Shown here in pieces: positions 34,471-63,558 of a stretch of DNA of 64,000 bases (position 1 is its first letter; each line of letters starts with the position of its first letter). The stretch is from a virus. The stretch covers positions 32,523 to 96,522 of IMG/VR virus record IMGVR_UViG_3300030012_003086; one strand, given 5' to 3'. The translations under genes and the position numbers were made by a program. The notes beneath the pieces are model-generated. The model worked only from the letters and a program-made list of their open reading frames with translations. It did not search any database and was not told the origin of the DNA.

Positions 34471-34761
34471 CTATCTCCCTCTTCTTCTAATTGATTGAAT
34501 AATATTTTTGCTTAACATTTTATCCCAAAATTTATCTGCTACGGGTAGTGTTCCATCAGCCTCTATGTCTCCGTCTTTTATTGAAAGTAAATACTTAACC
34601 ATTTCTTTTAGGTATTTTTCTCCTAATCCCTGTCTTTCTTCTGCATTATGACCAAAGCCCATAATTCCCCAATATCCAGCATAAAACGCATCTCCGGTTG
34701 CTTTACCATCTTTTGAATGCCAAGTGACTTCTAATTCTTCTTTGATAATATTAAACCACAT
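34471..34761 (-). CDS. WxxIIK-leader protein with GNAT-like fragment
   Basis: MWFNIIK leader; RQGLGEKYL and ADKFWDKM resemble GNAT motifs A/B. Confidence 0.6.
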   Translation of the reverse strand: MWFNIIKEELEVTWHSKDGKATGDAFYAGYWGIMGFGHNAEERQGLGEKYLKEMVKYLLSIKDGDIEADGTLPVADKFWDKMLSKNIIQSIRRRGR

Positions 34762-37133: not shown

Positions 37134-38489
37134 TCACAGAAGGTTTGTGACTTTACCTTGTCCTTTCCAATATGAGCAACCCAATTCACCAATTGTTCGG
37201 TAAAGAGCCTTGTTTCCGAGGGTTCCGACACCGAATGGGTTTCCGTTGCTAATACCATCCTCAAAGTATTGAGTTGGTTTCATAACAGATAGCCATAGAT
37301 GGTCTGTATCTAGGAATAACATATCGCTAATACAAGATGAATTTACACCTGTGGAAGCCATAGCAGCAACAGGAATTAGAGGAATATCGTAGTAAGTTGA
37401 TACTCTAAATCCTACTTCTTGACCTTTAACACCACGAACACCGTTTACGGTTGGAACAATTTCTTTTCTATCCATAAATCTCTCTTGTGCTTGTAGCAAA
37501 TCAGAGATAGTTTGTAGTGTATCATATCCTGTTAGAATAACCTTTGGTGAACCACCGGCAACACGAATTAGTCTTAGCATTTCATTAAGAACAGTTAGTG
37601 TTAGTTGGCGAGCATCTGCGCTAGCATAAGAATCACCAAAAGTAACCTGTGAATCTAGGAAAGAAGCAGCGTCACGGTTTGTTGAGAATAGATGACTCAA
37701 TTCATTCGCAGTTGCGCTTGATACTAGATTTGCGGTAGCCATAGCATCCAATTCAGCCTTTGAAGAAACAATCTTGTTTAGAGAAGTATAGTTTCTCTCA
37801 ATTGTATCAACAGTAACTGAACCGGAAACTGCTGAACCTGCTGCATAGAATTCTAGAGGCATAACTAGCATAGCATTCTGAACTTCAGCGTGGTGCTTAC
37901 CCATATCTTCACGCATTTGCGCTCTAATATCGCCAATTCCATCATCAATTTGTGCCATTTCCATAGCCAATTCGCTGAATTCAAATTGATGTGCAATAAT
38001 TTTAGGACTTGTGAACAATTGCTCATACTTTGGCGCAATAGAAGCCAAACCATCAGCAACAGTATCTAGACCTGCGTTCTCAGGAACACCACCAATAATA
38101 TCTGCTCTAGGAGAAGTTGAACCGAGATTTGCAGCATCTTTTGAACCTTCAACATCTAATGCTAGGAAATTACCACTACCACCAGCAGGTCTTTCTGACA
38201 ATACTCTCCAACCGCTAGAAGTATATGGCCTCTTAGAAATTACTGAAAGAGCATTACATTCACGGTTTAACATAGACCAAACTTTTTGTCCGTAAACTTG
38301 ATTGTATAATGCTCCTAGAGAAGAAGCAGCAGTAGTTCCACTACCGACTCCTAGAGAAACATCATGGCCTGTGTGAATACCTGCCACTGCACCAACCTGT
38401 TTTAGCAATTGGTTGTTTAGTCCCGCATTTGCGCCCATTCCGTAAGTATTAGCCTCTAAATCTGCAATTGTGTTAATATATCCACTCAT
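37134..38489 (-). CDS. HK97-fold major capsid protein
   Basis: 451 aa after the protease-scaffold; PKIIAHQFEFSE, PKVILTG, YDIPLIP, C-terminal GKVTNL. Confidence 0.88.
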   Translation of the reverse strand: MSGYINTIADLEANTYGMGANAGLNNQLLKQVGAVAGIHTGHDVSLGVGSGTTAASSLGALYNQVYGQKVWSMLNRECNALSVISKRPYTSSGWRVLSERPAGGSGNFLALDVEGSKDAANLGSTSPRADIIGGVPENAGLDTVADGLASIAPKYEQLFTSPKIIAHQFEFSELAMEMAQIDDGIGDIRAQMREDMGKHHAEVQNAMLVMPLEFYAAGSAVSGSVTVDTIERNYTSLNKIVSSKAELDAMATANLVSSATANELSHLFSTNRDAASFLDSQVTFGDSYASADARQLTLTVLNEMLRLIRVAGGSPKVILTGYDTLQTISDLLQAQERFMDRKEIVPTVNGVRGVKGQEVGFRVSTYYDIPLIPVAAMASTGVNSSCISDMLFLDTDHLWLSVMKPTQYFEDGISNGNPFGVGTLGNKALYRTIGELGCSYWKGQGKVTNLL

Positions 38490-38490
38490 C

Positions 38491-39717
38491 TTAAATTCCT
38501 CCTACCATCTTATGAATGTCATTCCAGTCCATTTCTGCAATTTCATCCAATGAAGGGAGTTTAATTTGAGACTCTTCTTGAGCCTTTAGAATAGTCTCTT
38601 TCTCAGCAGTTAGAGACTTTCTTAGTTGTGTAAATTCTTCCTTTAGGGAAGCAATTTCTGTCTTTGCATCGTAATTTGCTTTAGCGATTGCATTTGTTCT
38701 TGATGTAGTTTCAGCCTCAAATCTGGCTTCAAACTGCTTTTGAAGATTATCGTAAGCCAATTTTTCTAATTGTTCTTGACGGAATGCTTCGTAAGCCTTC
38801 TCAATGTTTCCTACTGACAAATCAAGTGTTTCTAATTCATTGTTGTTATATGCTTTAACAACAGGCAAATCAGAAGCCTTTGGATTTCCATTCTCAATAA
38901 CGACTCTATCCGCAGGTTCACCGATTTCAACACCAGCACCATCTAGAGTTGAAAGCAAAGCCTTTGCTTCTCTGTCTCTTTCTTCAGTGCCCATATCCAT
39001 CAATTCTTCTTCTTCTTCATCGGCTCTTTCCATGTTGTCCATGTATTCGCCCATGCCCTTTTCTTTTTCTTCAGGCATTTCTTTTGCATACATGCCTTTT
39101 TCATCTTCTTTTTCTTCTTCTTTTCTTAACATATTGACTTCCTCCATTAGAGTGTCCAATTCTGCTAGTGCTTTTTCTAGTTTACTCATTTTTTTTGCCT
39201 CCTTATCTTGCTTTAAAATATCAAATTTCGCTTCCGGGTTTATTCCTTTTTCACATATTGTTACTTCATGCAATTCTAGTTTGCTTATTTCATTGTAATC
39301 TCCTAACTCTGGGTGATTTTTCTTTACTTTATGTATCGCTTGCCCCCCAATGCTAAATGACCTCAATGAACCTTTTCTTATGCCTCGATTTATTTCTTTG
39401 GCTTTTTCTATATCATCCCTTAATTTAATCACTACAAAAAATCCTACATCATCAACTTCAGTTTTCCATAGTTTTCCGTTCTTATCTCGATATGATTTAA
39501 TTACCTCTCCGACTTGAACATTTGAATGGTTTGTCATTACATTCCTAAATTTGGGATTCTCCATGTATTTTTCGACTGCATCTTCTAATGCTTTGAGTGT
39601 AATTAAATCATTTTGCTTATCAACGATTTCGATGCTTGCATATCCTCCAATCATTAAATCGTCACTTTTGAGTATTCTGAAATCATCATTATGATTAGCC
39701 ATAATAGCAGATGCCAT
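38491..39717 (-). CDS. prohead protease fused to scaffold
   Basis: IGGYASIEIVDKQND, H(S)N..VG, SFSIGG, LHEVTICEKGINPEA followed by an acidic coiled-coil scaffold. Confidence 0.9.
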   Translation of the reverse strand: MASAIMANHNDDFRILKSDDLMIGGYASIEIVDKQNDLITLKALEDAVEKYMENPKFRNVMTNHSNVQVGEVIKSYRDKNGKLWKTEVDDVGFFVVIKLRDDIEKAKEINRGIRKGSLRSFSIGGQAIHKVKKNHPELGDYNEISKLELHEVTICEKGINPEAKFDILKQDKEAKKMSKLEKALAELDTLMEEVNMLRKEEEKEDEKGMYAKEMPEEKEKGMGEYMDNMERADEEEEELMDMGTEERDREAKALLSTLDGAGVEIGEPADRVVIENGNPKASDLPVVKAYNNNELETLDLSVGNIEKAYEAFRQEQLEKLAYDNLQKQFEARFEAETTSRTNAIAKANYDAKTEIASLKEEFTQLRKSLTAEKETILKAQEESQIKLPSLDEIAEMDWNDIHKMVGGI

Positions 39718-42267: not shown

Positions 42268-42507
42268 TTAATACTTAGATTCTTGACCTGCTAAACCATA
42301 TCCATCAGTTTCTCTATTTTTAGGAATTAATTCACTATCTTTAACTTCTTCTGCTTTTGGTCTTTTTACTTTGACTACTTCAGCATCATCCTTTTCGGGA
42401 CTTCTGTTATTATCATTAAGAGACAATTCTAATTCTTTTTTAGCACTTCTAGCCTTTTCAATAGCAAGACTGACAATTCTTTCTTCTTTTGTTACTCTTT
42501 CCGGCAT
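42268..42507 (-). CDS. hypothetical protein
   Basis: 79 aa, coupled. Confidence 0.7.
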   Translation of the reverse strand: MPERVTKEERIVSLAIEKARSAKKELELSLNDNNRSPEKDDAEVVKVKRPKAEEVKDSELIPKNRETDGYGLAGQESKY

Positions 42508-42758
42508 TAATTTCCACCTGCCTTTTCGACCATTTTATGAATCTCGGACCAATCCATAGTTGAAATATCTTTTGGCATTCCTGTTGGAGAACCAATTGAA
42601 TTATCCATAGCAGGAGTTGGACTATTAGTTACTACAAAGCCTGCTTTCATGAGTATGCTATCTTTAGCATAAATTGTCTTTTCTAAATCTTCAACCTTTG
42701 AGGCTAGTGCTTTAATTATCTCTAATAATTCTTCATTAATTGTGTTTTCTTCTGTCAT
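42507..42758 (-). CDS. scaffold-like small protein
   Basis: Coiled coil; C-terminus MDWSEIHKMV nearly identical to the scaffold C-terminus MDWNDIHKMV. Confidence 0.7.
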   Translation of the reverse strand: MTEENTINEELLEIIKALASKVEDLEKTIYAKDSILMKAGFVVTNSPTPAMDNSIGSPTGMPKDISTMDWSEIHKMVEKAGGN

Positions 42759-46994: not shown

Positions 46995-47114
46995 TTAGTT
47001 ATCAACCTTACTAACTTTCATACTCTTTGGTTTACCTGCTTTTATCCAGCACGATTCACAAAACCCAAAAGGATAATTATTTTCTGAACAATAACATTTA
47101 CCACAATATATCAT
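46995..47114 (-). CDS. small Zn-finger protein (39 aa)
   Basis: MIYCGKC...FCESCW; ATGA overlap with the upstream gene. Confidence 0.55.
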   Translation of the reverse strand: MIYCGKCYCSENNYPFGFCESCWIKAGKPKSMKVSKVDN

Positions 47115-47491
47115 AGTCTCCGCCTCTGATTCTTTGGCCGTGTTAAATGCTTTCCGGGGTCAGAAGCAACGCTACCGAAATTTGTTCGGGGGCTAACTGC
47201 TCCTGTGTCAGACATATCTCCGGTAGTTTGATTTACAATATTTGTTGTTCTTGGTGTAGGATTATCAAATCTAGCACCTGCAAGAACTCCTAACATTTTT
47301 TTCATCTCTTCAACTGTTCTTTGTTGTTTAGGCTTGAATCTTAAATATCTTTTAAATTTCTTTTTAGCATCATCAGAATAATTGGATAAACTCATCTGAA
47401 AATCATAAAATTCTTTTGCTTCCTGATTAGGAAAAAAACCAAAAATACCTTTTTCTAAATCAGATTTAAGTATTAATTTCCATTCTTCCAT
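47111..47491 (-). CDS. WxxILK-leader protein
   Basis: MEEWKLILKS. Confidence 0.75.
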   Translation of the reverse strand: MEEWKLILKSDLEKGIFGFFPNQEAKEFYDFQMSLSNYSDDAKKKFKRYLRFKPKQQRTVEEMKKMLGVLAGARFDNPTPRTTNIVNQTTGDMSDTGAVSPRTNFGSVASDPGKHLTRPKNQRRRL

Positions 47492-47495
47492 ACAA

Positions 47496-47813
47496 TCATC
47501 TCCTTGATTTATTTCCGTGACATTTCCATTTTTTACGGCTTAAATTATTCGGGCTATTTGGGTCACTTCTCCAATTTCCTTTAATTTTATTTGACCTCGC
47601 ACAATAAGCATCTCCCTTAGAAGTTCCGGGCCTTATTCTATCTCCACCATCTTTGGCTTTACCTGCTTGACCATATGAAACCTTTCTGCCCGAAGCAGTT
47701 CTTTTAACAAACCTTTTTCCTTTTCGAGGTTTGCCTAATTTCTTTTTCCTTCTTTTAGAACCGGCCTTTCGTCTAGCCTTACTTTTCTTTTGAAGAATAT
47801 CTTGCCAAGTCAT
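47496..47813 (-). CDS. WxxIL-leader highly basic protein
   Basis: MTWQDILQKK; K/R-rich; AYCARS motif. Confidence 0.75.
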   Translation of the reverse strand: MTWQDILQKKSKARRKAGSKRRKKKLGKPRKGKRFVKRTASGRKVSYGQAGKAKDGGDRIRPGTSKGDAYCARSNKIKGNWRSDPNSPNNLSRKKWKCHGNKSRR

Positions 47814-48253
47814 TACTTTTCTCCTCTCATTTGGTTTTGTTTAGAGGTTTTATCATCAACAATTGGCCCGCCCTTCGCCCAAGTATAGCAAGTTCTCGCT
47901 GAATGACATTTAAAGTGATGCATCCAACAATAGCCCAGAGTTTCCCACTTTTTATTATTTTTTATAGCGGATTTTATTTCCTCTTGACTCATAATTTCTA
48001 AAGGCATACATTCATCCATTCTTGGAGATATATCAAATGCAATACAATTACTACAATTAGATTCCTTTGCTACATCAGCAGTAGTGTTCCACCTTTTAGC
48101 ATATTCCTCCCAATATTCTTCATCTTCTAGATTAAGTGGCCCATATCTGATATTAGGATTTTTAACTGCGGCATCTCTATTCTTAGTATTGAGCATCAAA
48201 TCTTGTGTTGCTCTAGGACAAGCCATTTCTTTTAGGATAATTTGCCAAGTCAT
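47813..48253 (-). CDS. WxxILK-leader Cys/His-rich protein
   Basis: MTWQIILKE; CSNC...YCWMHHFKCHSARTC. Confidence 0.8.
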   Translation of the reverse strand: MTWQIILKEMACPRATQDLMLNTKNRDAAVKNPNIRYGPLNLEDEEYWEEYAKRWNTTADVAKESNCSNCIAFDISPRMDECMPLEIMSQEEIKSAIKNNKKWETLGYCWMHHFKCHSARTCYTWAKGGPIVDDKTSKQNQMRGEK

Positions 48254-48642
48254 GCAGTGAAACCTCTCCCTTTACTTGGTTTTTTATTAGATATAATATC
48301 TCCATCTGAGTGAATGTATGCTTTTCCATCCTCAACTAAAGCCATTACTTCGCCCTTTATTTGAGCAGGGCTAAGTTTTTTCTTAAATTTTTTATTTAAG
48401 TGACTATAACCTAAAGCACCACCTTCTTTTTCTATTTCTCTTAAAATCAATCCTCTGATTGCTCCGGCTTTAGCCTTCTTGACTTTCTTTCCATCTTTAT
48501 CAAGAACACCTCTTCCAATTAGAACATCCTTTCTAGTAACTTTACCGTCACCGGATAAATCCTCTAAATCTTTTTCAAAAATCTGCTTTTCACTATCGGT
48601 TTTTTCATTACAGTGTCTTTTTATTATATCTTTCCAATTCAT
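48250..48642 (-). CDS. WxxIIK-leader protein (EF-hand/dockerin-like loop plus wHTH-like module)
   Basis: MNWKDIIKR; DLSGDGKVTRKD. Confidence 0.75.
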   Translation of the reverse strand: MNWKDIIKRHCNEKTDSEKQIFEKDLEDLSGDGKVTRKDVLIGRGVLDKDGKKVKKAKAGAIRGLILREIEKEGGALGYSHLNKKFKKKLSPAQIKGEVMALVEDGKAYIHSDGDIISNKKPSKGRGFTA

Positions 48643-49070
48643 GTTTTAGCCATCCTTTGTGTTTTTCTTTTACTTGATTCCTTTCTTGCCGAAGCAACTT
48701 TATGTGCAGCATTTAATCTCTTCTTTGTTTTGGGGTCTTTTGCTCTCCTAGCCGCTACTCTTGCTCTTTGTTCAACTAAATTAATTATTTGCGATTGTCT
48801 TTTATGTGGCTTAGAACGGAATGCCGCACTACTGAATGTATCTCTCACATCTTTAGCAGTTTTAAAACTAACGGGAACAGTATCTTTTGGATTTTCATCT
48901 GTGTATAATCTTCTTCTAGACCCTTTTGGCTTTTTACCTGTTCCTTTTTTGGGGTCGGTTTTTTTTATTTCTTTACTTCGACAATGTGCTTTACAAGTAA
49001 ATCCTTTAGTTTTATTTGGCCCACTACAAACGCAATAAGACATATCTTTCTTTAGAATATCTTGCCACAT
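48639..49070 (-). CDS. WxxILK-leader basic protein
   Basis: MWQDILKK; TAATG coupling at 49070. Confidence 0.75.
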   Translation of the reverse strand: MWQDILKKDMSYCVCSGPNKTKGFTCKAHCRSKEIKKTDPKKGTGKKPKGSRRRLYTDENPKDTVPVSFKTAKDVRDTFSSAAFRSKPHKRQSQIINLVEQRARVAARRAKDPKTKKRLNAAHKVASARKESSKRKTQRMAKT

Positions 49071-49867
49071 TATTTTGTCTTCCCCCATTTCTTACCTTTA
49101 CCTTTAGTTTTACAGGCTGATGGTGTAGGGCGACAAGCAGGATATCTTTTTCTTTTTTCACCGGAAGAACGACCACATGATTTGTAGCCACCACTTCCAT
49201 CGGGCGCATTACAATCAACCCAACCGCCTTTACTCCCTTTAGCACCTTTACGACCAAACCAATCTTTAAGACTTGATTCAGAAGAAGGCTTTGAAGTCAA
49301 TCTTCTTCTTTGTTTCTTTTTATAACGTTTAGCACTTCTTCTTCTTCGAGCCTTGCTCTTTTTATGAAGAATATCTTCCCATGCAGATTTTTTAACAGAA
49401 GCCATAGTTATATCAGTAACTGCAATTAATACACCAAACAGTAATATTTTCAAAAACATTCTATTATTCTCTATAACGTTAATTATCCCCTCATCAATAA
49501 ATTCTTCAAACAAAAAAGATTTTAGTTTTGTAATCATATTATTTATAGTGATATCAGATATGCTTTTTCTAATTATATGAATTAGTTCAGGATTAGAAAA
49601 ACCTTCATCCTGCGTGTTTAAATCCACTTCTTTTACTTTATCTAAACACAACAATATGATTTCACTGAGAATTACGTTAACAGGAGTATCTAAATTATTA
49701 TCATCAATATAATTATTATATTCTTTCAGAAATTTATCTGAATATGTATCAACAAGATTCTTCATATCGGGATGTATATAATTTATTTTATCATATAAAT
49801 TTGGCATAGCACTATCAAAAACATTTGATAAATCAATAGATTCCTTCAATATGTTATGCCAACTCAT
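49070..49867 (-). CDS. WxxILK-leader two-module protein
   Basis: MSWHNILKE; acidic helical domain, then internal WEDILHK and a basic Cys module. Confidence 0.75.
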   Translation of the reverse strand: MSWHNILKESIDLSNVFDSAMPNLYDKINYIHPDMKNLVDTYSDKFLKEYNNYIDDNNLDTPVNVILSEIILLCLDKVKEVDLNTQDEGFSNPELIHIIRKSISDITINNMITKLKSFLFEEFIDEGIINVIENNRMFLKILLFGVLIAVTDITMASVKKSAWEDILHKKSKARRRRSAKRYKKKQRRRLTSKPSSESSLKDWFGRKGAKGSKGGWVDCNAPDGSGGYKSCGRSSGEKRKRYPACRPTPSACKTKGKGKKWGKTK

Positions 49868-49872
49868 ATCAA

Positions 49873-50073
49873 TCACTTCTTAGATTTATTGCCCCAATTA
49901 GCAGCACCTACTTTACGGCATTGGACTAAAGCACCACTAGCGTAAGCGGAAGGCCATTTTTTATATCTACTTCTTACCTTATAATAACAAGCATCTTGTT
50001 TTTTACCAGACCTTTGGGTTCTCCTTCTTCGGAGTTTTTTCTTTTTTCTTTTAAGAATATCTTGCCACTTCAA
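49873..50073 (-). CDS. WxxILK-leader highly basic protein
   Basis: MKWQDILKR...DACYYKV...WPSAYASGALVQCRK. Confidence 0.75.
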   Translation of the reverse strand: MKWQDILKRKKKKLRRRRTQRSGKKQDACYYKVRSRYKKWPSAYASGALVQCRKVGAANWGNKSKK

Positions 50074-51431
50074 GCCAATATCCCCCCTATTCCTTCTAAC
50101 TCATCCATTACTGAAATTTTACAATTATCTTTGTATTTTTGAATGTCATCTAAATTTATATTTTCTTTACCAAAATCAAATCCAACATGGTCTTTATGAT
50201 TTTCCCACTTCATCAATTTGAAAATTTCGTCACACCTTTGCTTATACCAATCAGCCTTCTTATATGATTTTTTCATTCGTATCAACTCTATAAGTAATTC
50301 GGCATTTCCTTTCTTTAATCTAAAATGAGGAAGACACTTAGTTAGTAAACCCATAACGTCTTTTTGTGAATAAAAATTTAAACGATTTACGGGTCTAGTA
50401 TCTTGTGGAGATTTTTGGTCTAAATGTAATCTTCCAAAACCAATTGATTTATGCATCTCTTCCATGAATGCCCTGCCTCTTTCTCCGGTAGCGACCAAAC
50501 CAACTCTAGGATTCATATTACGGTCAAGAGTAATATAACCATCAGAGTCAATAAAAGCAGCAGTATAAGCCCATACATTTTTCTTTAACATAGTAGGGGC
50601 CTTGTAATAATTGCCCTTAACGGATAATATATCTAGTGACTTTGCTGATTTAGATATAGAGTTAGCATTGGTTGTTCTAAATAAATCAGCAGGCATTCTA
50701 TCATGTATTCCCTTCGCACTAATACCGGGGTTTTCACACACCATCTTTACAATAAAGTCATTTTGTCTGTCCTTTTTCGACTTAACTAAAGACTGATTAG
50801 AAACCTTAGAAATAGCATTTCTAAATTCTTTTTTACTTTGTCTCATAGTCTTGTATAGTGCAGAATAATCATCACAGTAAACCATTCCTGTTTGTTCTAG
50901 TTCAGCCTCCCAATACTTACACAAAGCATCAACGACTTCTCTTCTAGATTCCACATCTTTCATTTTGTAAAGTTTCTGTAAGTCTTTTTCATTAAATCTC
51001 ATTTTCTTTAAAGGCACTTCGTAAGGAGATAACCAAGAAATAGAATCTATACATTTCTGCAAATGGTCTGAGTAAGCATCAATCATTGTATCAATTACTC
51101 TTGTCATCTTTTCTCTATTTTCACCCTTAAGGACTCTTCTAGCCTTCCTCATCTTAGTGACTAAATCAGGAATAGTCTGTTCTTGTATGATATATTCATC
51201 GGGGAATGAAACAATATACTTTCTTGCTTGAGAAGCATTAATCCCTAAATCATTTGATAGTTTAGTTATCTGCTCATTCTCCGACATAACATATGTGTCA
51301 AAAGAAGCAGTGACTAAATCTTTATTTTGAGCATCTTCAATCTCATCCTCAACCTTTTCTTCTCTCTCAGTAATTCTAGACAACTCTTCATATTTGCTAG
51401 AAATTTCTTTTAATCTTTCAGCCTTCGACAT
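50070..51431 (-). CDS. protein with a C-terminal LAGLIDADG endonuclease domain
   Basis: YTAAFIDSDGYI, GFGRL, LPHFRLKK; long helical N-terminus. Confidence 0.8.
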   Translation of the reverse strand: MSKAERLKEISSKYEELSRITEREEKVEDEIEDAQNKDLVTASFDTYVMSENEQITKLSNDLGINASQARKYIVSFPDEYIIQEQTIPDLVTKMRKARRVLKGENREKMTRVIDTMIDAYSDHLQKCIDSISWLSPYEVPLKKMRFNEKDLQKLYKMKDVESRREVVDALCKYWEAELEQTGMVYCDDYSALYKTMRQSKKEFRNAISKVSNQSLVKSKKDRQNDFIVKMVCENPGISAKGIHDRMPADLFRTTNANSISKSAKSLDILSVKGNYYKAPTMLKKNVWAYTAAFIDSDGYITLDRNMNPRVGLVATGERGRAFMEEMHKSIGFGRLHLDQKSPQDTRPVNRLNFYSQKDVMGLLTKCLPHFRLKKGNAELLIELIRMKKSYKKADWYKQRCDEIFKLMKWENHKDHVGFDFGKENINLDDIQKYKDNCKISVMDELEGIGGILA

Positions 51432-51439
51432 AATACCAC

Positions 51440-52852
51440 CTAGAAATTAAGACCCAATGAATTCCTTTTAGGACCACTATCAAATAAACCTATATCATCT
51501 AACAGAATGAAGTTTTCAACTAATTGATATGTAGCAGCGTTAGCCAATGCTAAACTCATAACCATATCGTCATGTGCGCCTATTCCCTCAAACTTACCAC
51601 GTTCAGTAATAGCAAACATTGACAATTCCTCAACTAATGTTGAAGTAACTCTTCGGCTTTCTTCATTACCATAAGGAAAATTCATTTTTTGATTCTCTAA
51701 AGTCATCTGTAAATTAAGAATAATTTCCTGCTTCTTTCTTCTAGTGGTGTTGAAATCATGCACGTTTAAATCAGCCACCTGTCTCAACTCCTGTGTAAAA
51801 GATTTAGCGAAAGTATTAGTCTCAAAAAGAATAGCCTCCGGTCTGAAAATTTGACCTATCAATTTTACTTTGTTGATATTTTCTCTAAACTCAACATTCT
51901 TTGCCCGGTCAATGTAAACTATGGATTTGTTTTCATTCTCATCGACTTCTAAAACAGTAATTACATTGTAGTCTCCATCAGTGGATATAGCAGGGTCCAC
52001 TCCTACAAAATACTTGTAGCCTTCTCTTCTCATAGGTTTCAAAACCAAATCTTTATTCTTAGCACTATCCAAATATTCGGGATTAAATAAAGAAGTGCCC
52101 GTTGATATAGGAACACACATATATTCTCTTGTAAACATGAGAGAACCTACTTCAGCCTTTCTTGCCATTAGTGCATCATAATTCCATCTTTCGGGCCATA
52201 GCGGTTCGTTTAAAGAATTTAAACAAGGATATGTTCTAACTGTATAAGCCTCATTTTCTGCTAGTTGCTGATAAATATCTGTGTAACTAAAAGGAGTTCC
52301 GATTACTCTAAGAGAAGCAGTGTGGTGAAGTGTTGGTATCATGTCACCATAAAACCAATCTGTAACTTTCTGAATACCTGTCATACTAAACTCCTTTAAA
52401 GGGTCATCAATAATAATCTCTTGAGGGTGTAACCCACGAATCTGAGAACCTACTGACCTTTCTAGAATTTGATTTCCATTAGTCAAAGTAATATTACCAA
52501 TAGCCCAACCTCTAGCAGGTTTAAACTTCTTAAGCATAGGATGAGTAAACATCTTATCAATGTCTCTCATGTGAACCAAAGTCTGTTTTTGGTTAGAAGA
52601 AATGTAAAGCATTTGATATGGGGGTTCTTCAAAGATTAATTTCCATACAACCCAACTGTGCATAAATACAGATTTTCCGTGGTCACGACTACAAATAATT
52701 ACAGTTCTTTGAGTGCTATTCATCAACTCATGCCACTCTTGAATATAAGAGGGAAAATGATAACCTAATACATTTTGAAAAAAATATGGAAAAGAGTTAC
52801 GAGATAACTCCATATCCATCTGATGTTCAAAATTAAATGCTTCTAATTCCAT
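51440..52852 (-). CDS. terL: terminase large subunit
   Basis: SRDHGKS Walker A, IIIDDP Walker B, VIGTP, GVDPA, HDDMVMSLA. Confidence 0.95.
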   Translation of the reverse strand: MELEAFNFEHQMDMELSRNSFPYFFQNVLGYHFPSYIQEWHELMNSTQRTVIICSRDHGKSVFMHSWVVWKLIFEEPPYQMLYISSNQKQTLVHMRDIDKMFTHPMLKKFKPARGWAIGNITLTNGNQILERSVGSQIRGLHPQEIIIDDPLKEFSMTGIQKVTDWFYGDMIPTLHHTASLRVIGTPFSYTDIYQQLAENEAYTVRTYPCLNSLNEPLWPERWNYDALMARKAEVGSLMFTREYMCVPISTGTSLFNPEYLDSAKNKDLVLKPMRREGYKYFVGVDPAISTDGDYNVITVLEVDENENKSIVYIDRAKNVEFRENINKVKLIGQIFRPEAILFETNTFAKSFTQELRQVADLNVHDFNTTRRKKQEIILNLQMTLENQKMNFPYGNEESRRVTSTLVEELSMFAITERGKFEGIGAHDDMVMSLALANAATYQLVENFILLDDIGLFDSGPKRNSLGLNF

Positions 52853-54057
52853 TACATATCCTCCGGTGAATAAAATACGGGAAGTTTGCTATTTAATCTC
52901 AACCTATCATACATTTTCTGATGAAACCTACCCTTATCCATTTCACCTATTTTTAAACTTCTAGTCCTCATTTTACGGTGATATTTTCTTTTTTCATCAT
53001 TAGTCATGTTTTCATATTCTTCCCTTGTGTTCGTTTTACCTTTTATGCTTTCCCCACCATATTTAGGGGATGCAAAGGTAGGAAATTTGTAATTTCTTTT
53101 TTTATCAAGCCTTCCTCTCATTCTTATATGAAATTTTTTCTCTTCGCCCTCAGTTAGTTTAATCCTACCTGTATGATACTTGTGCTTTTCACTATTAGTT
53201 AAAGTTTCATAAACTTCTTGTGAAAGTTCTTGATATAGCAAAGGATTACCATGAGCGGTTTGTCGCCCTTTTATTTTAAATCTATTATTTTCTAAATCTA
53301 AAGAATAAAAATCTTCTTTCTTTGAGTTTGTAATTATTCTTTGATATTGCCTTGTATGAAATCTAGCCAATTCTTGTAATTCTACCATTTCCTGATATAA
53401 TGGAGATTTTTCATCAGTAACATTAACTCTTGCTTGTAGGTTTTTTAGTCTTTTATTGTAGGCCTCATATTGACTCGAATGCCATCTTTTTCTATCATCA
53501 GGACTCGCTCTTTCATATTGTTCAGCACTACGAATGTCCACTAAATTTTTAATAATGTTCCACCATCCTTTTGCCAAAGGCAATCCTTTAACTGCCCATT
53601 TAGCCCCTCTAGGGTGGTCATCATAATATTCTTTGAATGCCTTAATAGTATTATCATTAGCATATTTTCCTAACTCTTTATCTGTTGGAGTTACCGACCA
53701 ACCTCTCTTTTCAAAAGACTTAGCCCATTCTTCATTAGGCATAACAGTTGAAGAAATACCTGTTATGTAAGGACCGGAAGTATTTCTCTCAAGATGTCTA
53801 TCTAACTGCTGATAATGATTGTTGCCTCTTTCAGATTCAATGACAAATGCACCACCTCTAGTAGTGAATTCTCCTTTCTTACCATAACCAATCGCAGCAA
53901 TAGGCAGGCCGTCTTGTAATTTAACAAAGTAATCAGTTATAGGATAGAATGGGTCTAAAGGAGAATTCTTACTACGGGCAGCAGGAAATTCACTGTCATT
54001 ATTTGATTCCCACAAAGAAAACAATTCTTCTTTAGACATATCCTCTATCAAAATCAA
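52852..54057 (-). CDS. GNAT-like domain + internal WWNIIK + triple His-repeat domain
   Basis: PIAAIG...AFVIESERGNN (GNAT-like); three ~45-60 aa repeats. Confidence 0.7.
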   Translation of the reverse strand: MILIEDMSKEELFSLWESNNDSEFPAARSKNSPLDPFYPITDYFVKLQDGLPIAAIGYGKKGEFTTRGGAFVIESERGNNHYQQLDRHLERNTSGPYITGISSTVMPNEEWAKSFEKRGWSVTPTDKELGKYANDNTIKAFKEYYDDHPRGAKWAVKGLPLAKGWWNIIKNLVDIRSAEQYERASPDDRKRWHSSQYEAYNKRLKNLQARVNVTDEKSPLYQEMVELQELARFHTRQYQRIITNSKKEDFYSLDLENNRFKIKGRQTAHGNPLLYQELSQEVYETLTNSEKHKYHTGRIKLTEGEEKKFHIRMRGRLDKKRNYKFPTFASPKYGGESIKGKTNTREEYENMTNDEKRKYHRKMRTRSLKIGEMDKGRFHQKMYDRLRLNSKLPVFYSPEDM

Positions 54058-54323
54058 CCCTCTTTATTCTCATAATCAGTAATTAATTTTCTTACTTTCA
54101 TAGCGACTTTTTTAATTTCATCAGCAAGGTCCAAATACTGTTGACTTCTTCTTTTATCAATATAAGCAAACCTAGCCAACTCAGGAACAAGTCCATTTAC
54201 TCCCTTGTGAAATTTAGTTTTGTTCATAGTTTGTCGCAACAATTTAGAAACTTCTTCTCTAGGATATTGGATAGGGTTAGCCAAATCTAATCTCTCTGCT
54301 TTCAATACTTCTTGCCAATTCAT
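54054..54323 (-). CDS. WxxVLK-leader protein
   Basis: MNWQEVLKA. Confidence 0.75.
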   Translation of the reverse strand: MNWQEVLKAERLDLANPIQYPREEVSKLLRQTMNKTKFHKGVNGLVPELARFAYIDKRRSQQYLDLADEIKKVAMKVRKLITDYENKEG

Positions 54324-54327
54324 ATTA

Positions 54328-57015
54328 TCACTGCCTAAATGATGCTTTTATTAAATACACCTGCTCTTTGCTAATACCATATTCCTTTGATAGATTACCA
54401 TGAGCGTCATCGGATTTTACAATATTTTCGACTTCTAAATTACTCAAATCAATTTGATGATTATGATACATATCATCAATAAACGAACCTACATCTCTAT
54501 TTAAATCAAGGAAACCATAAACAACGGGTTTTCCTAATTGCTTTCTAATAACGTCATGGGCCTTTAACAACTTAGTTACTCTTTCCGGTAAGTCCTTCTG
54601 TCTTTCTTCGTATATTTGCATGATTCTATCATACTGTGATTTCATGTTATCATCTTGTGTTAGAACTCCTTGTTGTTCTAATAAGAAGTTAAACAACGCC
54701 ACTAGATATCTTCTTTGTCCAGCAGATTCAAAGTATTCAGAAACTCTTTCTTTAATTGTTTTAGTGCTATCTTTAGGGAATCTCTTGTCTTCTAATCTAG
54801 TATCTTCTACTTCATTCATCAGAATATAAATTTGAGTCGCTATCTCATTAGCAATTTGCTCTCTATTATTTTCTCCAAAAATCTCAGATATAGAATCCAA
54901 TGCTGCTTGTCCTGTTACAAATGTATTACTGTTTATTTGTAAGTTTCTTGCATTTTTAATCTCAAAGAATTCAGCAATATTAGATAAGTCATTAACTCCT
55001 ATTTCATCCACTTCTCCTTCGGATAGTATCTCATATGCTCGACCAAATGCAGACTCTAGACCTAACATATCTGCCCAAACACTGAATCCTCGGTTAGCCC
55101 TGCTAGTGGAAAATCTAGGATTATTAATTACAGTAAAACCTGCTTGGACAGGAAGAGAAAAATAGTCTGTCATTCTCTTAATTAGTTCTTTTAAAGGTTC
55201 AATAATCACTTTATATTTCTCATCTATTTGTGCTAGAGAAGGGTCATCATCAATATCTCCTCGGAAAAATGACATGGTTTTACCTGCTGATAGTGCTTCG
55301 CCATATTGAACGGTTGTTCCTTTGGGTTGGCCTTTAGTGGTTCTAGAAGCAATATGGAAAGCAAAAGGAACAGGTTCAGATTTATCGCCTACCTTCTTAC
55401 CTTCGGGTATTTCTCCTGCATCTTCCATTTCTTGAGTATAGGTTATTGGTTTTTCTTTTAGAGCATTAAGTAAGTCTTCTAAGAAATCCTTGATATCATC
55501 TTCTCTATCTAGTAAAGTTTCAGAATCCATTCCTTGATATAGACTATTAAATTTTGAATTTCTAAGAACAGAAGCAGGAAGATAATACCCACTAAATGCA
55601 ACTTCATCTTCTTCAACAATAGTAGTATCTTCTAATTCATCAGCCCACCTATTTAATTGGGCTTCATAAGTGCCGGTAACTTTTAGTTCACCATCAGCAA
55701 TATCATCCAATTCATCATCAATATACTCAATCAATTCATCATACTGTTCTTCTGAAATACTAATGAGTTTCTTTTCAGTATCGTCTTTCTTCAATTCCCA
55801 ACCTAAGAGAGGGTCAATTGATTCAAGACTGTTTTTCATTTGTTCAAATACTTCTTCATCTTTATCTTTGAATGCCATATCTTCAACTAATTTATTGTCT
55901 ATTAGTTCGGCTCCTTCTCTCAGGGCTTCATCAGCCGAACCTGCCGCAGCAGTTTGTATAGATTGCATAGCAGCATCTTTACTGCTCTGTGCTTCCTGTT
56001 CTATTCTTTGCATCTCTTTGACTTCTTCTTGAGACATTTGTGCATCCCTTTCGCCCAAACCTTTTCTGTCCTCAAATTGAGCATACATATCCTCAATTTT
56101 TTCTCCCACGTTGTTAAGTATCATCCAATACATTACTGTGGAATACAATCTTCCTAGAGCCTCCATTTGCATAGAATCTACTTTATCAAACTTAACAATA
56201 TATTGTAAATTCTTATTTGAATATCTATTCAAGACCTTTAACAATTCATCTCGATAGTCTTGAGGTAAACTCTTTTCTTTTGCTACCGCAGTTTTAAAAT
56301 CATCTAATGCTTCTTTGAAAAAATCATATTTTTCAAAAACATTGCCCCAATGATTATACACTAATTGTCTAAATGTTTTCTTACTTACATCAACTGCACC
56401 CAAAACAAAATCGAAATCTATTGGGCTTTCCATAGTTTTTGCAGGGGAAATATCTGTTCTATATCTCCCTGTTCTTTCTCTAGGTCTTTCTTCGCCCTCG
56501 GCTACATCTAATTCGTCTTCAATGAATAAATAAATTTCTTCAAAGTTATGAATCAGATTCTCAATTAATTCATTTTGTTCCATGTTTCTTAAAGAGGTAA
56601 GTGCAGAAGTTACTGTATCTAAATCAGAAGGACTGAATCCTCTTACTCTAAATCTCTCTGGCTTAAGACGAATACTTGCTAATTGCTGATAGCCTAACTT
56701 TTGTCCTTTTAGGGTTTCAATAGTCAAGTTATTGATTACGTTTCTGATTTGTCCTATTGGAGTGCTTGACATCTCACCTGCTCTTTCATCAGTTTTCTTA
56801 TCGACTAAAGACCTAAATTCTCTTTCAAAACGATTAGTGAATTTTTTAATTTCTTCTTCACTTCCCTTGTCCATCAAGAATTGCCTAAACTTTACAAGTT
56901 GTTGACGAATGGCTCTTTGTTTCTTTGCACCTTTCATAGCAGATATATCCTTGATATCATTTTCAGAAACATCATATTCTGTATTTAATTCGGATAAATC
57001 AATTACCTTCACCAT
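54328..57015 (-). CDS. large acidic hypothetical protein with C-terminal HTH
   Basis: 895 aa; ends LSKEYGISKEQVYLIK. Confidence 0.8.
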   Translation of the reverse strand: MVKVIDLSELNTEYDVSENDIKDISAMKGAKKQRAIRQQLVKFRQFLMDKGSEEEIKKFTNRFEREFRSLVDKKTDERAGEMSSTPIGQIRNVINNLTIETLKGQKLGYQQLASIRLKPERFRVRGFSPSDLDTVTSALTSLRNMEQNELIENLIHNFEEIYLFIEDELDVAEGEERPRERTGRYRTDISPAKTMESPIDFDFVLGAVDVSKKTFRQLVYNHWGNVFEKYDFFKEALDDFKTAVAKEKSLPQDYRDELLKVLNRYSNKNLQYIVKFDKVDSMQMEALGRLYSTVMYWMILNNVGEKIEDMYAQFEDRKGLGERDAQMSQEEVKEMQRIEQEAQSSKDAAMQSIQTAAAGSADEALREGAELIDNKLVEDMAFKDKDEEVFEQMKNSLESIDPLLGWELKKDDTEKKLISISEEQYDELIEYIDDELDDIADGELKVTGTYEAQLNRWADELEDTTIVEEDEVAFSGYYLPASVLRNSKFNSLYQGMDSETLLDREDDIKDFLEDLLNALKEKPITYTQEMEDAGEIPEGKKVGDKSEPVPFAFHIASRTTKGQPKGTTVQYGEALSAGKTMSFFRGDIDDDPSLAQIDEKYKVIIEPLKELIKRMTDYFSLPVQAGFTVINNPRFSTSRANRGFSVWADMLGLESAFGRAYEILSEGEVDEIGVNDLSNIAEFFEIKNARNLQINSNTFVTGQAALDSISEIFGENNREQIANEIATQIYILMNEVEDTRLEDKRFPKDSTKTIKERVSEYFESAGQRRYLVALFNFLLEQQGVLTQDDNMKSQYDRIMQIYEERQKDLPERVTKLLKAHDVIRKQLGKPVVYGFLDLNRDVGSFIDDMYHNHQIDLSNLEVENIVKSDDAHGNLSKEYGISKEQVYLIKASFRQ

Positions 57016-57017
57016 TG

Positions 57018-59453
57018 TTATACCTCCTCAATTAATCCTGCTTTTTCAAAGACATTTACAATATTCGCTATTTTGTTTTTATCATAAGTAAACATATGAA
57101 GAGTGAAGTTTTTCAATTGGTTTTCAAAGGCCTTAACTACTAATTCTTTCATTTCTTGTAAAAACTTGGACATCTTTTTATCTAATTTTTCAGCGATTGA
57201 CTTAGCATCATCGGGTCTATTATCAATACTCTCATAAGCAGTTTGTATAAAGTCTTTATCATCGGGATAGAAAGAAGCAAGATAAGACAAAAACCCTGCT
57301 GCATCTTTAGGATTCAATATTGACAACTTGTTAAAATCATTTTTAATTTCATCCGCTAAAGAAGATAAACCTCCCTCATCTTTTCTCTCCTTAGATAAAT
57401 CAACTAAGAATGAAACAAAGTCCTTTGCACTCGAAGATAGATTTCTAACCGCCCCAATAGCAGACTTGGTTCTCTGCTTTTCCTTATTTTCAACATCTTC
57501 AAACCTTTCAATGTTAGCCTCTCTTTGAGCAATTGTGTTTCTAATTTCATCTTTTCTTGCACTACTTATATCAGTATTCAAAAGTTCACGTAGTTTATCA
57601 TTCTGCTCCTTCTTCTTTTGTGTAATTTTGTCGTAATTTCTTTTTCTTCGCTCTTTTTGCTTTTCAAACGATTCACCTAATTTTTCAGCAGTTTCTAAAG
57701 GAGTAAATGTCTTATAGTCTTCGTATTCGGCAGATGCAATATTATAGTCATCATCATACTCTATCGTTTCTTCTATTACCCACGCAATCTCTATTCTAGC
57801 AAAAGAAGCAGCATCAATCATATTCTGTTCGGAAGCAAAATCTTCTTGAATTAAAGGTCTAGGTGAAATCGGACTAGAATACCAATTGACTCTTACTTTA
57901 CCCTCAGCCCCTTCATATTCTCCTTCATTCCAAAATTCCAAAAATCGAAGTGCTTCTGATTTAGTCCATCCCCTATCTAAATTAAACAAGGTGTCTCTTC
58001 TCATTTGGCTAGTGACACTTTTGACCTCATTTTTCCTAGAAGAGTTGTTTCTTATGTTCTCTTTTATCTTCTTTCTAGCAAAATCAGCATCATTGAAGTC
58101 AATATTTTTACCTTTTAGTGTCTTTTTATAGGGATTTAAAGGAATATCATACGCAAAACTTCTTTGAATATCCCCATGAACACCCGAAAGACTAGAATAT
58201 AAGTCATCAATAATCATTTTTTCTGCTCTGTCTTCTGATATAAATTCGGTCTGTTTTGCCATTTTTAGATAGGTTTCAAACCAATTTTTACGCATAGAAT
58301 GGTATAAAATAGCAGAACCATAGGGATTTAGCACTATTTTCTTCATATTTTTGGTCGCTCTCTGTAAAAACAAGTTATCGGGGAAAGGTAAGATGGTTCC
58401 CGTAGGATTTCTTCCTATTGTGGTCTGATTATAATCAGAATTATCGGGATTTTTTCCAGAAATCCAAGATGGAATCAATTGACCCGGTTCACCAATAACA
58501 TCTTCATAGGCCTTTATGTATAATTCAACAGATTTTGCCGTAAATGGGGTATGAGCAGGCGCAATTTTATATTTTGTTCCCAAAAATGCCATTTTACTTC
58601 CCAAATCTTCTTTAGTTTCTTTATTTTTATTTTTTCCTGCAAAAATAACATTGATTTTGTATTTTTTATTGAGAGTATTATACAAATTTTTTATTTTTTT
58701 CTTATTTTTTACTAAATCCTTTTTTCCTTCAGCAATTACATCAATAATTTCTTCTCTGTTTTCAGGATTTTGTATTCTTTTAATCTCCCAATTAGATTTA
58801 TTTTTATCTGAATAAATAATTGGGTTCAAAAGAGAAATAAATTCTCCATGAGTGCTTACATTTAATTCAATTATTCCATTTTCAAACTTAGACTCTAATA
58901 ATTTAGCAAATTCTGTAACTTCGCTATCACTTTCACTTGGAGTTGTATCAAACGTTATCATATTTTTGGATTTTCTTCTATTAATATACTCTTGATACTG
59001 TATAATTTTCTTTGCTTCGGGATATCTTCTCCACTTGCCTCTATTTTTTGGCATTAATTCAATTAATTTTGCAATTAATTTCTTTTTTTCTGAGAAATCT
59101 GACCCTTGTATCTGTTCAACTAATAACTTTATTTGTTGGGATTTTTCAGGAGCCTGTTTTTTCGGTAAAAATTCTATAATTTGTTCTATGTTAGCCTTAA
59201 ATTGTTCTTTCGTTTGGTCTGCTTGTGGTAATTTTCCATACAAATCATACGCTCTTTGAATTTTAGCATCATCGACTTTGAGTTGGTCTAGACGATTCTT
59301 TAACTTTGACAAATTTTCTTTTGAAAATTTGCCACTCTGAATATTTTCTAGAAATTCTTGAAAATTTTCCGAAGATATTAGGTCAAGATAGAGGACTTCA
59401 TCAGCATCGGGAAACATTCCATAAGGTGCTTTAAGGACATTAAACCAATTCAT
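57018..59453 (-). CDS. large WxxVLK-leader protein
   Basis: MNWFNVLKA at ATG 59453 after GGAG; ~811 aa, helical. Confidence 0.8.
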   Translation of the reverse strand: MNWFNVLKAPYGMFPDADEVLYLDLISSENFQEFLENIQSGKFSKENLSKLKNRLDQLKVDDAKIQRAYDLYGKLPQADQTKEQFKANIEQIIEFLPKKQAPEKSQQIKLLVEQIQGSDFSEKKKLIAKLIELMPKNRGKWRRYPEAKKIIQYQEYINRRKSKNMITFDTTPSESDSEVTEFAKLLESKFENGIIELNVSTHGEFISLLNPIIYSDKNKSNWEIKRIQNPENREEIIDVIAEGKKDLVKNKKKIKNLYNTLNKKYKINVIFAGKNKNKETKEDLGSKMAFLGTKYKIAPAHTPFTAKSVELYIKAYEDVIGEPGQLIPSWISGKNPDNSDYNQTTIGRNPTGTILPFPDNLFLQRATKNMKKIVLNPYGSAILYHSMRKNWFETYLKMAKQTEFISEDRAEKMIIDDLYSSLSGVHGDIQRSFAYDIPLNPYKKTLKGKNIDFNDADFARKKIKENIRNNSSRKNEVKSVTSQMRRDTLFNLDRGWTKSEALRFLEFWNEGEYEGAEGKVRVNWYSSPISPRPLIQEDFASEQNMIDAASFARIEIAWVIEETIEYDDDYNIASAEYEDYKTFTPLETAEKLGESFEKQKERRKRNYDKITQKKKEQNDKLRELLNTDISSARKDEIRNTIAQREANIERFEDVENKEKQRTKSAIGAVRNLSSSAKDFVSFLVDLSKERKDEGGLSSLADEIKNDFNKLSILNPKDAAGFLSYLASFYPDDKDFIQTAYESIDNRPDDAKSIAEKLDKKMSKFLQEMKELVVKAFENQLKNFTLHMFTYDKNKIANIVNVFEKAGLIEEV

Positions 59454-60034
59454 TCTCCTATCCACCTGTATTTGTTAGGCCTACCTTTTATTTTTTCATA
59501 TCTTTTGTAGGCGACGCTATTAAGATATCCGCTAACTTCAGCAGTAGTGGGAATATTTCCTCCGCTTCTATCGGGCTTGTTAATATAATAATCTTGTAAA
59601 GATAAAAAAGCCTCTTTAGCAGTTCTCTCCTTTCCATCTCTCATAATATTATCAAGATTCTTACCAAATTGAAATCTCCTACGTCTGCCTTTCATAAGTG
59701 ACTCCTTGTAATAGTCTTGACCGTCATCTAATCTAATTAATTTATATTTTGCCTTATTATGAACTTTAGCATACCCCCGTCTAAGGCCAAAATTAGTAAA
59801 ATAATTGGGAAACCATTTTCGTCCTTTACCCTTAGACCAAACAGACCATGTTCTTCTAGAAATATTATCCGAACCTACCATAGGTTCAACCACTTCCATA
59901 AATTTTTCATAATAATCACTACTGGTAAAAATTGTTCCAGCAGGAATAGTCAGGTAAACTTTCTCTATTCCTTTTTTTAGCATAGGCAAATTTTTGTTAC
60001 TATAACTTGCTTTAATGATATCCTTCCAAATCAT
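59450..60034 (-). CDS. WxxIIK-leader protein with wHTH-like domains
   Basis: MIWKDIIKA; C-terminal RTAKEAF...NIPTTAEVSGYL. Confidence 0.75.
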   Translation of the reverse strand: MIWKDIIKASYSNKNLPMLKKGIEKVYLTIPAGTIFTSSDYYEKFMEVVEPMVGSDNISRRTWSVWSKGKGRKWFPNYFTNFGLRRGYAKVHNKAKYKLIRLDDGQDYYKESLMKGRRRRFQFGKNLDNIMRDGKERTAKEAFLSLQDYYINKPDRSGGNIPTTAEVSGYLNSVAYKRYEKIKGRPNKYRWIGE

Positions 60035-60035
60035 T

Positions 60036-60473
60036 CTAATCCCTCTTCATGTGTTTTTTATTTTGTGGCGGTTCATAGCCTTTTTCTCTATAAAATGCTT
60101 CATCAAATTTAGGTTGTTTAAATCCATGATAAGGTCTAATATCTTCAGGTTCTTGTCCTTGAAAGAAACCTACTGCGTGTCGGTATTCAAAATCTATTTT
60201 TTCATCTATTGCATATATTTCTTTCATTTCAGGAGAGTTTCTTTTTTCTTTATGCCACCTAGAATAAGGAGTTCCTTCGGGTTTCCATTCTCCGGCCGGT
60301 GGTTCAGGACCAAATTCTCTTTCCATTCTTTCTTGTAAATCTTTAAACAATTGTGTTCTTTTTTCTTGAAGAGGATGTTGTTCTTTTCTTTTTGGTCGCA
60401 TTATTTTATCTTCGGCCATATACGCTTCAATTCTTTTCCAAGCATCATTTTTAAGAATAGATTGCCAACTCAT
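60036..60473 (-). CDS. WxxILK-leader protein
   Basis: MSWQSILKN. Confidence 0.75.
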   Translation of the reverse strand: MSWQSILKNDAWKRIEAYMAEDKIMRPKRKEQHPLQEKRTQLFKDLQERMEREFGPEPPAGEWKPEGTPYSRWHKEKRNSPEMKEIYAIDEKIDFEYRHAVGFFQGQEPEDIRPYHGFKQPKFDEAFYREKGYEPPQNKKHMKRD

Positions 60474-60685
60474 TGCAATTCCTCTTGCCTGTCTCTCATT
60501 TTTTCTAAAGCCACAATAGCCTGACCCATATCAATAATAGAGGCCGCTAAATCTTGCATTTCTACAGATGTTTCAGTTTCAAAATCTTTGAACTCTTCTT
60601 GTGCTAAAAGGTTGATTCGTTTCATTTTTCGTATAAAAGAGTCAATGTCTTTAAAATCGTCTTTAATTATTTTTTCCCAACTGAT
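60470..60685 (-). CDS. WxxIIK-leader protein with ATC in place of ATG (71 aa)
   Basis: GGAGG RBS then ATC AGT TGG GAA AAA ATA ATT AAA (xSWEKIIK); open to a TGA overlapping the next ATG. Confidence 0.55.
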   Translation of the reverse strand: MSWEKIIKDDFKDIDSFIRKMKRINLLAQEEFKDFETETSVEMQDLAASIIDMGQAIVALEKMRDRQEELQ

Positions 60686-60846
60686 TGCAATTCCTCCTTT
60701 AATGTTTTAATAAATGGTTCATAATTATGTTTGCCATAATCTCTTTCTAATACTTCTGCTACCTTTCTCGCAAAACTGTGTATAGATTCATCTTCCTCAA
60801 GAACAATGGTATCTAAAGTGACTTTAACTATGTTTTCCCAATTCAT
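60667..60846 (-). CDS. WxxIVK-leader protein (59 aa)
   Basis: MNWENIVKV...; GGAG RBS; not in the ORF track. Confidence 0.7.
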   Translation of the reverse strand: MNWENIVKVTLDTIVLEEDESIHSFARKVAEVLERDYGKHNYEPFIKTLKEELQSVGKK

Positions 60847-60870
60847 TGTTATTTCTCCTAAATTAAATTC

Positions 60871-61071
60871 TTAACCCATAATAGCATCCAATATGTTAAA
60901 TCTTGCATCTTTTCTAAAAAACCTACTATGTCCACAATTATTACAAAAAACCACTGTAAATACTTTGTTTGAATAATTGAATAACCTTGACCATTTTCCT
61001 GTCATTGCCATTTCTTCAAAAGAAAATGAAGTGCTCTGACATACTTCACAAAATAAAGTTAGTTGGTTCAT
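60871..61071 (-). CDS. Zn-ribbon nucleic-acid-binding protein (zinc_ribbon_13/DUF2082-like)
   Basis: CEVC...MTG..SRLFN..NKVF.VV.CNNCGHS.FF. Confidence 0.7.
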   Translation of the reverse strand: MNQLTLFCEVCQSTSFSFEEMAMTGKWSRLFNYSNKVFTVVFCNNCGHSRFFRKDARFNILDAIMG

Positions 61072-61082
61072 TATAATTTCTC

Positions 61083-61316
61083 CTATTCATAATTTAGAAT
61101 CGGTGATGACTTCCAATCATCAGCAAGTAAATCCTTTTTGTGCATTTCAGTTGCTAATAAAAAAAGTGTATTTTTATCATATTTATTTTCTAAAGATTCA
61201 ATATAAGACATAACTAATTTTTTTTCTTCTTCATTGAACTTATCCAAATTATTTTTTGCGTGGCTTGTCCAATTGTATGCTGCCCTTTCACTTTTCAAAA
61301 TATCTTGCCAATTCAT
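61083..61316 (-). CDS. WxxILK-leader protein
   Basis: MNWQDILKS. Confidence 0.75.
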   Translation of the reverse strand: MNWQDILKSERAAYNWTSHAKNNLDKFNEEEKKLVMSYIESLENKYDKNTLFLLATEMHKKDLLADDWKSSPILNYE

Positions 61317-61975: not shown

Positions 61976-61979
61976 GTAA

Positions 61980-63419: not shown

Positions 63420-63558
63420 CTTCCTCATCCTCTTTTCGTGGATTGACGACCTCAGAGTTAATTATACCCGGAGTTGATGTAGTGACTGCCCCTAATGCTT
63501 TTTTCTCACAGTCCGAACAACCGCAGCCTTTCTTTTTTAGAATAGTTTGCCAAGTCAA
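63412..63558 (-). CDS. WxxILK-leader small protein (48 aa)
   Basis: TTG start after GAGGTGA: MTWQTILKKKGCGCSDC...; not in the ORF track. Confidence 0.7.
   Translation of the reverse strand: MTWQTILKKKGCGCSDCEKKALGAVTTSTPGIINSEVVNPRKEDEEDE

Follow-up and report, generated by a model that had tools for sequence, protein, structure and literature searches.

A C-terminal peptide shared by the protease-scaffold and a small head-module protein of an ocean magrovirus is a candidate docking handle

Encapsulin cargo-loading peptides are short terminal peptides, carried by unrelated proteins, that dock inside an HK97-fold shell. In phage 80alpha, the scaffold docks on the capsid N-arm through its last 16 residues, an amphipathic helix with a hook, and the protein CpmB carries the same element (PMC5644958, Dearborn et al. 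2017). The gp4 protease of HK97 has a C-terminal capsid-targeting segment (Duda et al. 2013, as reported in PMC12749128). In the capsid targeting sequence (CTS) of T4 internal proteins (Mullaney and Black 1996), residues 4 and 7 serve in targeting while residues 8 and 10 are involved in processing (PMC9026906).

The DNA analyzed here, referred to as the window, is a stretch of 64,000 nucleotides at the right-hand end of a virus record of 96,522 bp and has a G+C content of 34%. Its plus strand carries an archaeal-type replication block and its minus strand a long block that includes TerL (51440–52852), the portal (45307–46962), an ATP-dependent DNA ligase (39758–42256) and an HK97-type major capsid protein (37134..38489; Pfam SU10_MCP, 2e-6; PHROG major head protein, 2e-20). 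Among named capsid proteins, haloarchaeal tailed viruses have the closest, with 23% identity to the capsid protein of HCTV-1. Judged by its sequence, the virus is an ocean magrovirus of archaea. Magroviruses are uncultured and among the most abundant archaeal viruses of the ocean, and we know of nothing that has been described about how their heads are assembled. A ligase within the structural module is a feature of the magroviruses of marine group II archaea, and the paper that describes them makes no mention of terminal motifs (PMC5434244).

Directly upstream of the capsid gene lies a gene for a 408-aa protein (38491..39717, minus strand) in which a prohead protease of the S78 type is fused to a scaffold region (Pfam Peptidase_S78, 6e-9, residues 22–174; PHROG head maturation protease, 4e-16), with the scaffold stop 1 nt before the capsid gene start. 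The protein ends in a 13-residue tail, M-D-W-N-D-I-H-K-M-V-G-G-I (38494..38532, minus strand; stop codon at 38491–38493), the core of which is M-D-W-N-D-I-H-K-M-V. Counted from the Trp as position 0, its hydrophobic residues fall at 0, +3, +6 and +7. Like the capsid-binding helix of P22, 80alpha and herpesvirus scaffolds, the tail is the extreme C-terminus of a scaffold encoded beside the capsid gene. In the relatives L032, L050, L056, L184, L228 and L235, the scaffold gene stops at TGA and the capsid gene begins 1–4 codons later in frame with it; read-through at these junctions would yield a scaffold–capsid fusion of the HK97 delta-domain kind, and the in-frame arrangement may be due to chance because one-third of arrangements are in frame.

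A tail of the same kind closes a second, much smaller protein of 83 aa (42507..42758, minus strand; an upstream ATG at 42785 would extend it to 92 aa), where the core M-D-W-S-E-I-H-K-M-V is followed by six residues (42510..42557, minus strand). Both tails had been noted in the original prediction, exactly as we find them in coordinates and sequence. Eight of the ten core residues are identical between the two, and three of these eight are encoded by differing synonymous codons (GAC/GAT, AAG/AAA and GTA/GTC); since codons differ at identical residues, the tails do not stem from a recent DNA copy.

Alignments of orthologues place the small proteins in one family, built from an N-terminal helix, a nearly invariant central L-L-x-K-A-G-[FY]-V motif (L-L-M-K-A-G-F-V in the window), a variable linker and the tail, with L36, K38 and G40 nearly or fully invariant in 35 orthologues. 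An AlphaFold2 model of the window's protein has helices at residues 3–30, 32–38 and 70–79 and disorder at residues 39–64; the last helix covers the tail with a block pLDDT of about 78, and the tail is accordingly predicted to be an amphipathic helix. No family match was obtained for the small protein in Pfam or PHROGs, and a search of the protein atlas returned only unnamed viral clusters, with the phi29 scaffolding protein below threshold at 0.76. Small proteins of clade B, L098:2593-2913 for example, have a short tandem echo just before the tail (E-E-I-H-x-M-[ST]-W-x-E-I-H), which looks like a duplication of the I-H turn.

Across more than 300 related viral contigs the tail is kept in both genes and changes in step between them, and the small gene with its tail is present in every magrovirus lineage sampled. 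The sequence M-[DE]-W-x-x-I-H-K-M-[VA] closes both proteins in 80 close IMG/VR relatives, and the residues just upstream of the small-protein tail are hypervariable. The clade B scaffold, which is 46% identical, ends in M-S-W-[DE]-E-V-H-x-L-A, and its small-protein orthologue of 106–154 aa in M-[ST]-W-x-[DE]-I-H-[ED]-M-A (the clade's G+C content, 44%, is that of one whole genome); both tail copies are also present in two further lineage sets. The overall consensus of this presumed handle is M-[SD]-W-x-[DE]-[IV]-[HN]-x-[LM]-[VA]. Related loci yielded 69 distinct scaffold tails, in which the motif is conserved, and 65 distinct small-protein tails. The two tails of one genome agree beyond shuffled pairs at positions -1, +2, +4, +5 and +7 (0 to 1 of 2,000 shuffles matched the observed agreement); I-N-A-L is paired with I-N-D-L, for example, and I-H-K-M with I-H-K-M. 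Such concerted change fits a partner shared by both tails, with the reservation that the signal is inflated by common descent. Within genomes, scaffold-type tails keep systematic differences from small-type tails. The earlier suggestion that the small gene encodes a second mini-scaffold or adaptor is reasonable because the gene is a conserved carrier of the tail, its tail changes with that of the scaffold and its tail helix is predicted.

The tail also extends beyond close relatives. At least 27 of the 150 best matches to the protease-scaffold among 1.84 billion representative proteins end in the tail motif, at 37–60% identity, which makes the handle older than this virus group and not confined to it. 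It is kept across lineages in which the middle regions of the scaffold can barely be aligned. A search for relatives with P0013 found none. Those found with P0088 are small, unrelated-looking viruses in which the tail variant lacks Trp and tags of the kind described below are absent; in one smaller, unrelated-looking virus (L326:7070-8647), a protease-scaffold directly upstream of a related capsid gene ends in the Trp-less K-I-P-F-S-K-I-R-K, with no tags in 17.8 kb. The scaffold of halovirus HCTV-1 has no clear tail, and a small tail-bearing protein was not seen at the HCTV-1 locus. Its 666-aa protease-scaffold (L081:9644-11641) has S-W-E-E-E about 25 residues from the end, possibly a handle-related sequence that has degenerated and become acidified.

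A Trp-centered motif is also found at the N-termini of many genes of this virus. The tag M-(x)-W-x-x-[IV]-[LI]-K starts 16 genes of the window and about 29 of the 134 genes of the 96.5-kb genome. Fifteen of the 16 are in gene arrays at 47111..63830 (minus strand), and the other is a 95-aa gene in the structural module (34471..34758, minus strand), which starts at 34758 with M-W-F-N-I-I-K. The codons for the Ile, Leu and Lys of the tag vary between genes, so conservation acts on the protein; on the same grounds we rejected a DNA-level origin of the tags, such as a recombination boundary or a leader RNA. As in T4-type capsid targeting, a short N-terminal peptide is common to otherwise unrelated protein bodies. 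Searches with 13 tagged proteins of this genome, 12 of them against Pfam and 11 against PHROGs, yielded no family, ten clade B tagged proteins had no match in Pfam and an 811-aa tagged protein had none in the protein atlas. Those tested have no recognizable families, and it is on the basis of the tag itself that the tagged proteins are regarded as putative cargo.

In clade B the tag reads [FM]-[DNE]-x-A-W-x-h-L-K, in about ten genes per genome, with the Trp one residue nearer the Lys. The longer clade B leader M-x-x-[FM]-[DNE]-x-A-W-x-h-L-K-A (L082-L155, G001 L160-L165) also turns up at one C-terminus (L135:14300-15076) and in the interior of longer homologues. Outside the window (genome G000:C1, L245:496-4419), seven tandem paralogues of 142–257 aa share the tag and a leader of about 45 residues. 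The leader contains a conserved Cys and an acidic run as well as K-Q-x-S-R and N-L-D-W-D-E-E, and the bodies behind it are divergent and have a second, invariant Cys. Tag-like copies also occur inside genes on the minus strand of the window: W-E-D-I-L-H-K at residue 166 (gene 49070–49876), W-W-N-I-I-K at residue 165 (52852–54057) and W-K-E-F-L-K at residue 511 (43116–45068). These may be fused cassettes or internal processing sites. A further copy, S-W-E-K-I-I-K (60662–60685, minus strand), has ATC in place of ATG behind a normal ribosome-binding-like GGAGG and may represent a dead start or a non-canonical one.

The h-L-K end of the tag matches both an invariant motif near the capsid protein N-terminus and the two borders of the protease domain. 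In the capsid protein, [LIVM]-[LI]-K is invariant at residues about 25–35 in approximately 100 distinct N-termini, within variable, Gly/Asn-rich flanks; the window's copy, Q-L-L-K (residues 27–30; 38400..38411, minus strand), is a candidate maturation cleavage site. Candidate sites in the protease-scaffold, all on the minus strand, are F-R-I-L-K before the protease domain (residues 13–17; 39667..39681), where L-K is conserved in clades A and B and is followed by S; F-D-I-L-K at the domain end (residues 165–169; 39211..39225), which takes the form F-x-I-L-K-[QE]-D in both clades and is common in that form among distant homologues; and T-I-L-K (residues 375–378; 38584..38595), about 20 residues before the tail, where cleavage could release it. 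In relatives, hydrophobic-x-K-[AS] recurs roughly 20–30 residues ahead of the scaffold tail. The small protein has I-L-M-K (residues 35–38; 42645..42656, minus strand) in its nearly invariant L-L-x-K-A-G motif. As the simplest reading of these alignments, we infer that h-L-K is a prohead-protease site, and the analogy with T4 suggests that the tag is a cleavable two-part signal like the CTS.

Taking the tails and tags together, we favor, with modest confidence, a reading in which the two tails are copies of one docking handle that binds the capsid protein, the small protein is an auxiliary scaffold or adaptor, and the tags are a separate signal. Conservation of the tails, their concerted change, the helix prediction and the absence of covariation between tags and tails (below) are observations, onto which this reading would add every step of binding and cleavage. 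By analogy with the scaffolds of P22, 80alpha and herpesviruses and with the HK97 protease, the handle would bind the capsid protein on its inner face within the procapsid and would thereby tether the scaffold body and the small protein under the shell, the latter acting through its N-terminal helix as auxiliary scaffold or adaptor. On that N-terminal side, the small protein might engage the portal, cargo or itself. At maturation, the prohead protease could cut both carriers loose at the conserved hydrophobic-x-Lys upstream of the handle. The tag would pair a Trp-centered half for targeting with an h-L-K half similar to the likely protease sites.

The original prediction went further and took the tags to be minimal mimics of the scaffold tail that dock cargo in the same inner capsid pocket, with the small protein as a further user of that pocket, which we consider unlikely although the likeness has substance. 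Among 282 distinct tags in relatives, Met is found at -2 in 72% (as start codon, which otherwise stands at -1 in 18% and at -3 in 10%), a small polar residue at -1, Trp at 0, Asp, Glu or Asn at +2 in 68% and Ile or Val at +3 in 97%. These parallel the core of the 69 scaffold tails and 65 small-protein tails, which has Met (Met or Leu in scaffold tails), Ser or Asp, Trp, Asp or Glu, and Ile or Val at the same positions. Further along, the two diverge. Position +4 is hydrophobic (Leu, Ile or Val) in 97% of tags, whereas the tails have His, Asn, Asp or Glu there (polar in at least 95%, Leu in about 1% and never Ile); position +5 is Lys in 98% of tags compared to about 30% of tails, mostly those of the window's clade; and the hydrophobic pair of the tails at +6/+7 has no conserved counterpart in the tags. 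Both tails fit the loose pattern M-x-W-x-x-I-x-K from which the likeness had been proposed, but not the real tag consensus, which calls for Leu or Ile at +4, a position occupied by His in the tails. Scored with a weight matrix made from the tags, the two tails reached -1.6 and -2.1 bits, ranking 36th and 37th of the 402 Trp-centered windows of the proteome, while true tags scored at least +6.8 bits. A matrix built in turn from 27 diverse tails ranked seven tags 3rd to 9th of the 402, right behind the two tails themselves, but the Met forced by the start codon contributes 4.4 of the 5.5–8 bits of these seven. In a comparison of the two profiles against a column-permutation null, p was 0.049 when the Met column was included and 0.13 when it was left out, and the claim that tags copy the scaffold tail, with p in the range 0.05–0.13 and differences at +4 to +7, has weak support.

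Covariation between tag and tail across relatives, which the original prediction had proposed as a check, is absent: in type-A lineages the Leu or Ile at +4 and the Lys at +5 of the tag are invariant and tags still read W-x-x-I-L-K while the tail takes the forms I-H-K-M-V, I-N-A-L-V, I-H-N-L-A, I-H-L-A-M, I-D-E-L-V and I-H-N-I-V. In clade B the tag register shifted while the tail stayed M-S-W-[DE]-E-V-H, and the profiles of tail and clade B tag show no significant resemblance (p = 0.8); an alignment that places the Phe of this tag on the Trp of the tail is attractive by eye and was rejected as not significant at the same p value. If the tag were a true mimic, a receptor pocket that stays the same for the tail would not be expected to accommodate this shift, and the likeness of tag and tail is therefore real but shallow. 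Since the tail matrix picks out seven tags and the core M-S-W-x-D-I is common to tag and tail in most lineages, some functional overlap is possible. It could take the form of a stripped-down handle copy in the first half of the tag, M-S-W-x-D-I, through which around 30 fast-evolving proteins per genome borrow the capsid pocket before the prohead protease frees them within the head at h-L-K, an idea we regard as doubtful. For the tails themselves, the partner could be the portal or the scaffold instead of the capsid protein. A handle for such another partner (portal, protease domain or scaffold core), by which the small protein is co-assembled into the scaffold core and not the shell, would suit the location of the small gene, which in both clades belongs to the portal-proximal region of the head module, as well as the T4 targeting peptides, which address the scaffold core and not the shell (PMC9026906). 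We find this improbable, given that the extreme scaffold C-terminus contacts the capsid protein in 80alpha, P22 and CpmB (PMC5644958, PMC12749128) and that the tail is kept where the scaffold middle regions barely align. The tails might also resemble each other as a functionless by-product of duplication or gene conversion, as the two genes are only about 3 kb apart and could exchange sequence. The synonymous differences within identical residues, the retention of the tail over the whole depth of the family between hypervariable flanks and the lasting distinction between scaffold-type and small-type tails in the same genomes make this very improbable.

A probable handle of 10 residues, conserved on two head proteins, gives a starting point for the study of magrovirus head assembly, in the form of a peptide, a presumed pocket and a small adaptor. 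The results also limit the idea that tagged proteins enter the capsid by copying the scaffold, which the sequence evidence does not show. Were the tag a copy of the handle after all, magroviruses would be running a programmable cargo-loading system built from a scaffold docking peptide. The handle could serve for loading foreign proteins into HK97-fold shells.

Among known systems, encapsulin peptides differ from the magrovirus peptides in being usually C-terminal and Gly/Leu-rich, without a Trp anchor, a protease or a scaffold, and their shell is cellular, not viral. The CTS of T4 internal proteins is an analogue of the tags rather than of the tail: in both, a peptide of about ten residues stands at the N-terminus of unrelated proteins and would combine a targeting half with a processing half that closes with the prohead-protease site. 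However, the CTS of T4 terminates in L/I-x-E and is directed to the gp22 core, whereas the magrovirus tag ends in h-L-K and is a putative signal. In P22 gp8, herpesvirus scaffolds and HK97 gp4, the extreme C-terminus holds the protein in the procapsid, and the magrovirus protein is an S78 protease with a scaffold extension; these C-termini have no sequence similarity to the magrovirus tail, and P22 uses a helix-turn-helix. To our knowledge, none of P22, herpesviruses and HK97 has a second conserved protein that carries a copy of the C-terminal element. That arrangement is the one of the 80alpha scaffold and SaPI1 CpmB, where, as here, one short amphipathic helix (predicted in the magrovirus) plus a short hook closes both the scaffold and a small helical protein; in 80alpha both bind one site on an HK97-fold capsid protein, at the N-arm helix and the A/P cleft. 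CpmB and the magrovirus small protein each have an N-terminal helical part, which by analogy with CpmB may serve oligomerization. The motifs are unrelated, with an R-I-I-K hook in 80alpha and CpmB compared to M-[SD]-W-x-[DE]-I-H in magroviruses. CpmB is, moreover, a satellite protein that competes with the phage scaffold and shrinks the capsid, whereas the magrovirus small protein is encoded in the virus's own head module in all lineages. Because it is virus-encoded and kept in every lineage, cooperation with the scaffold is likelier than competition. The small protein is thus CpmB-like by virtue of a C-terminus that copies that of the scaffold, and not as a member of the CpmB family.
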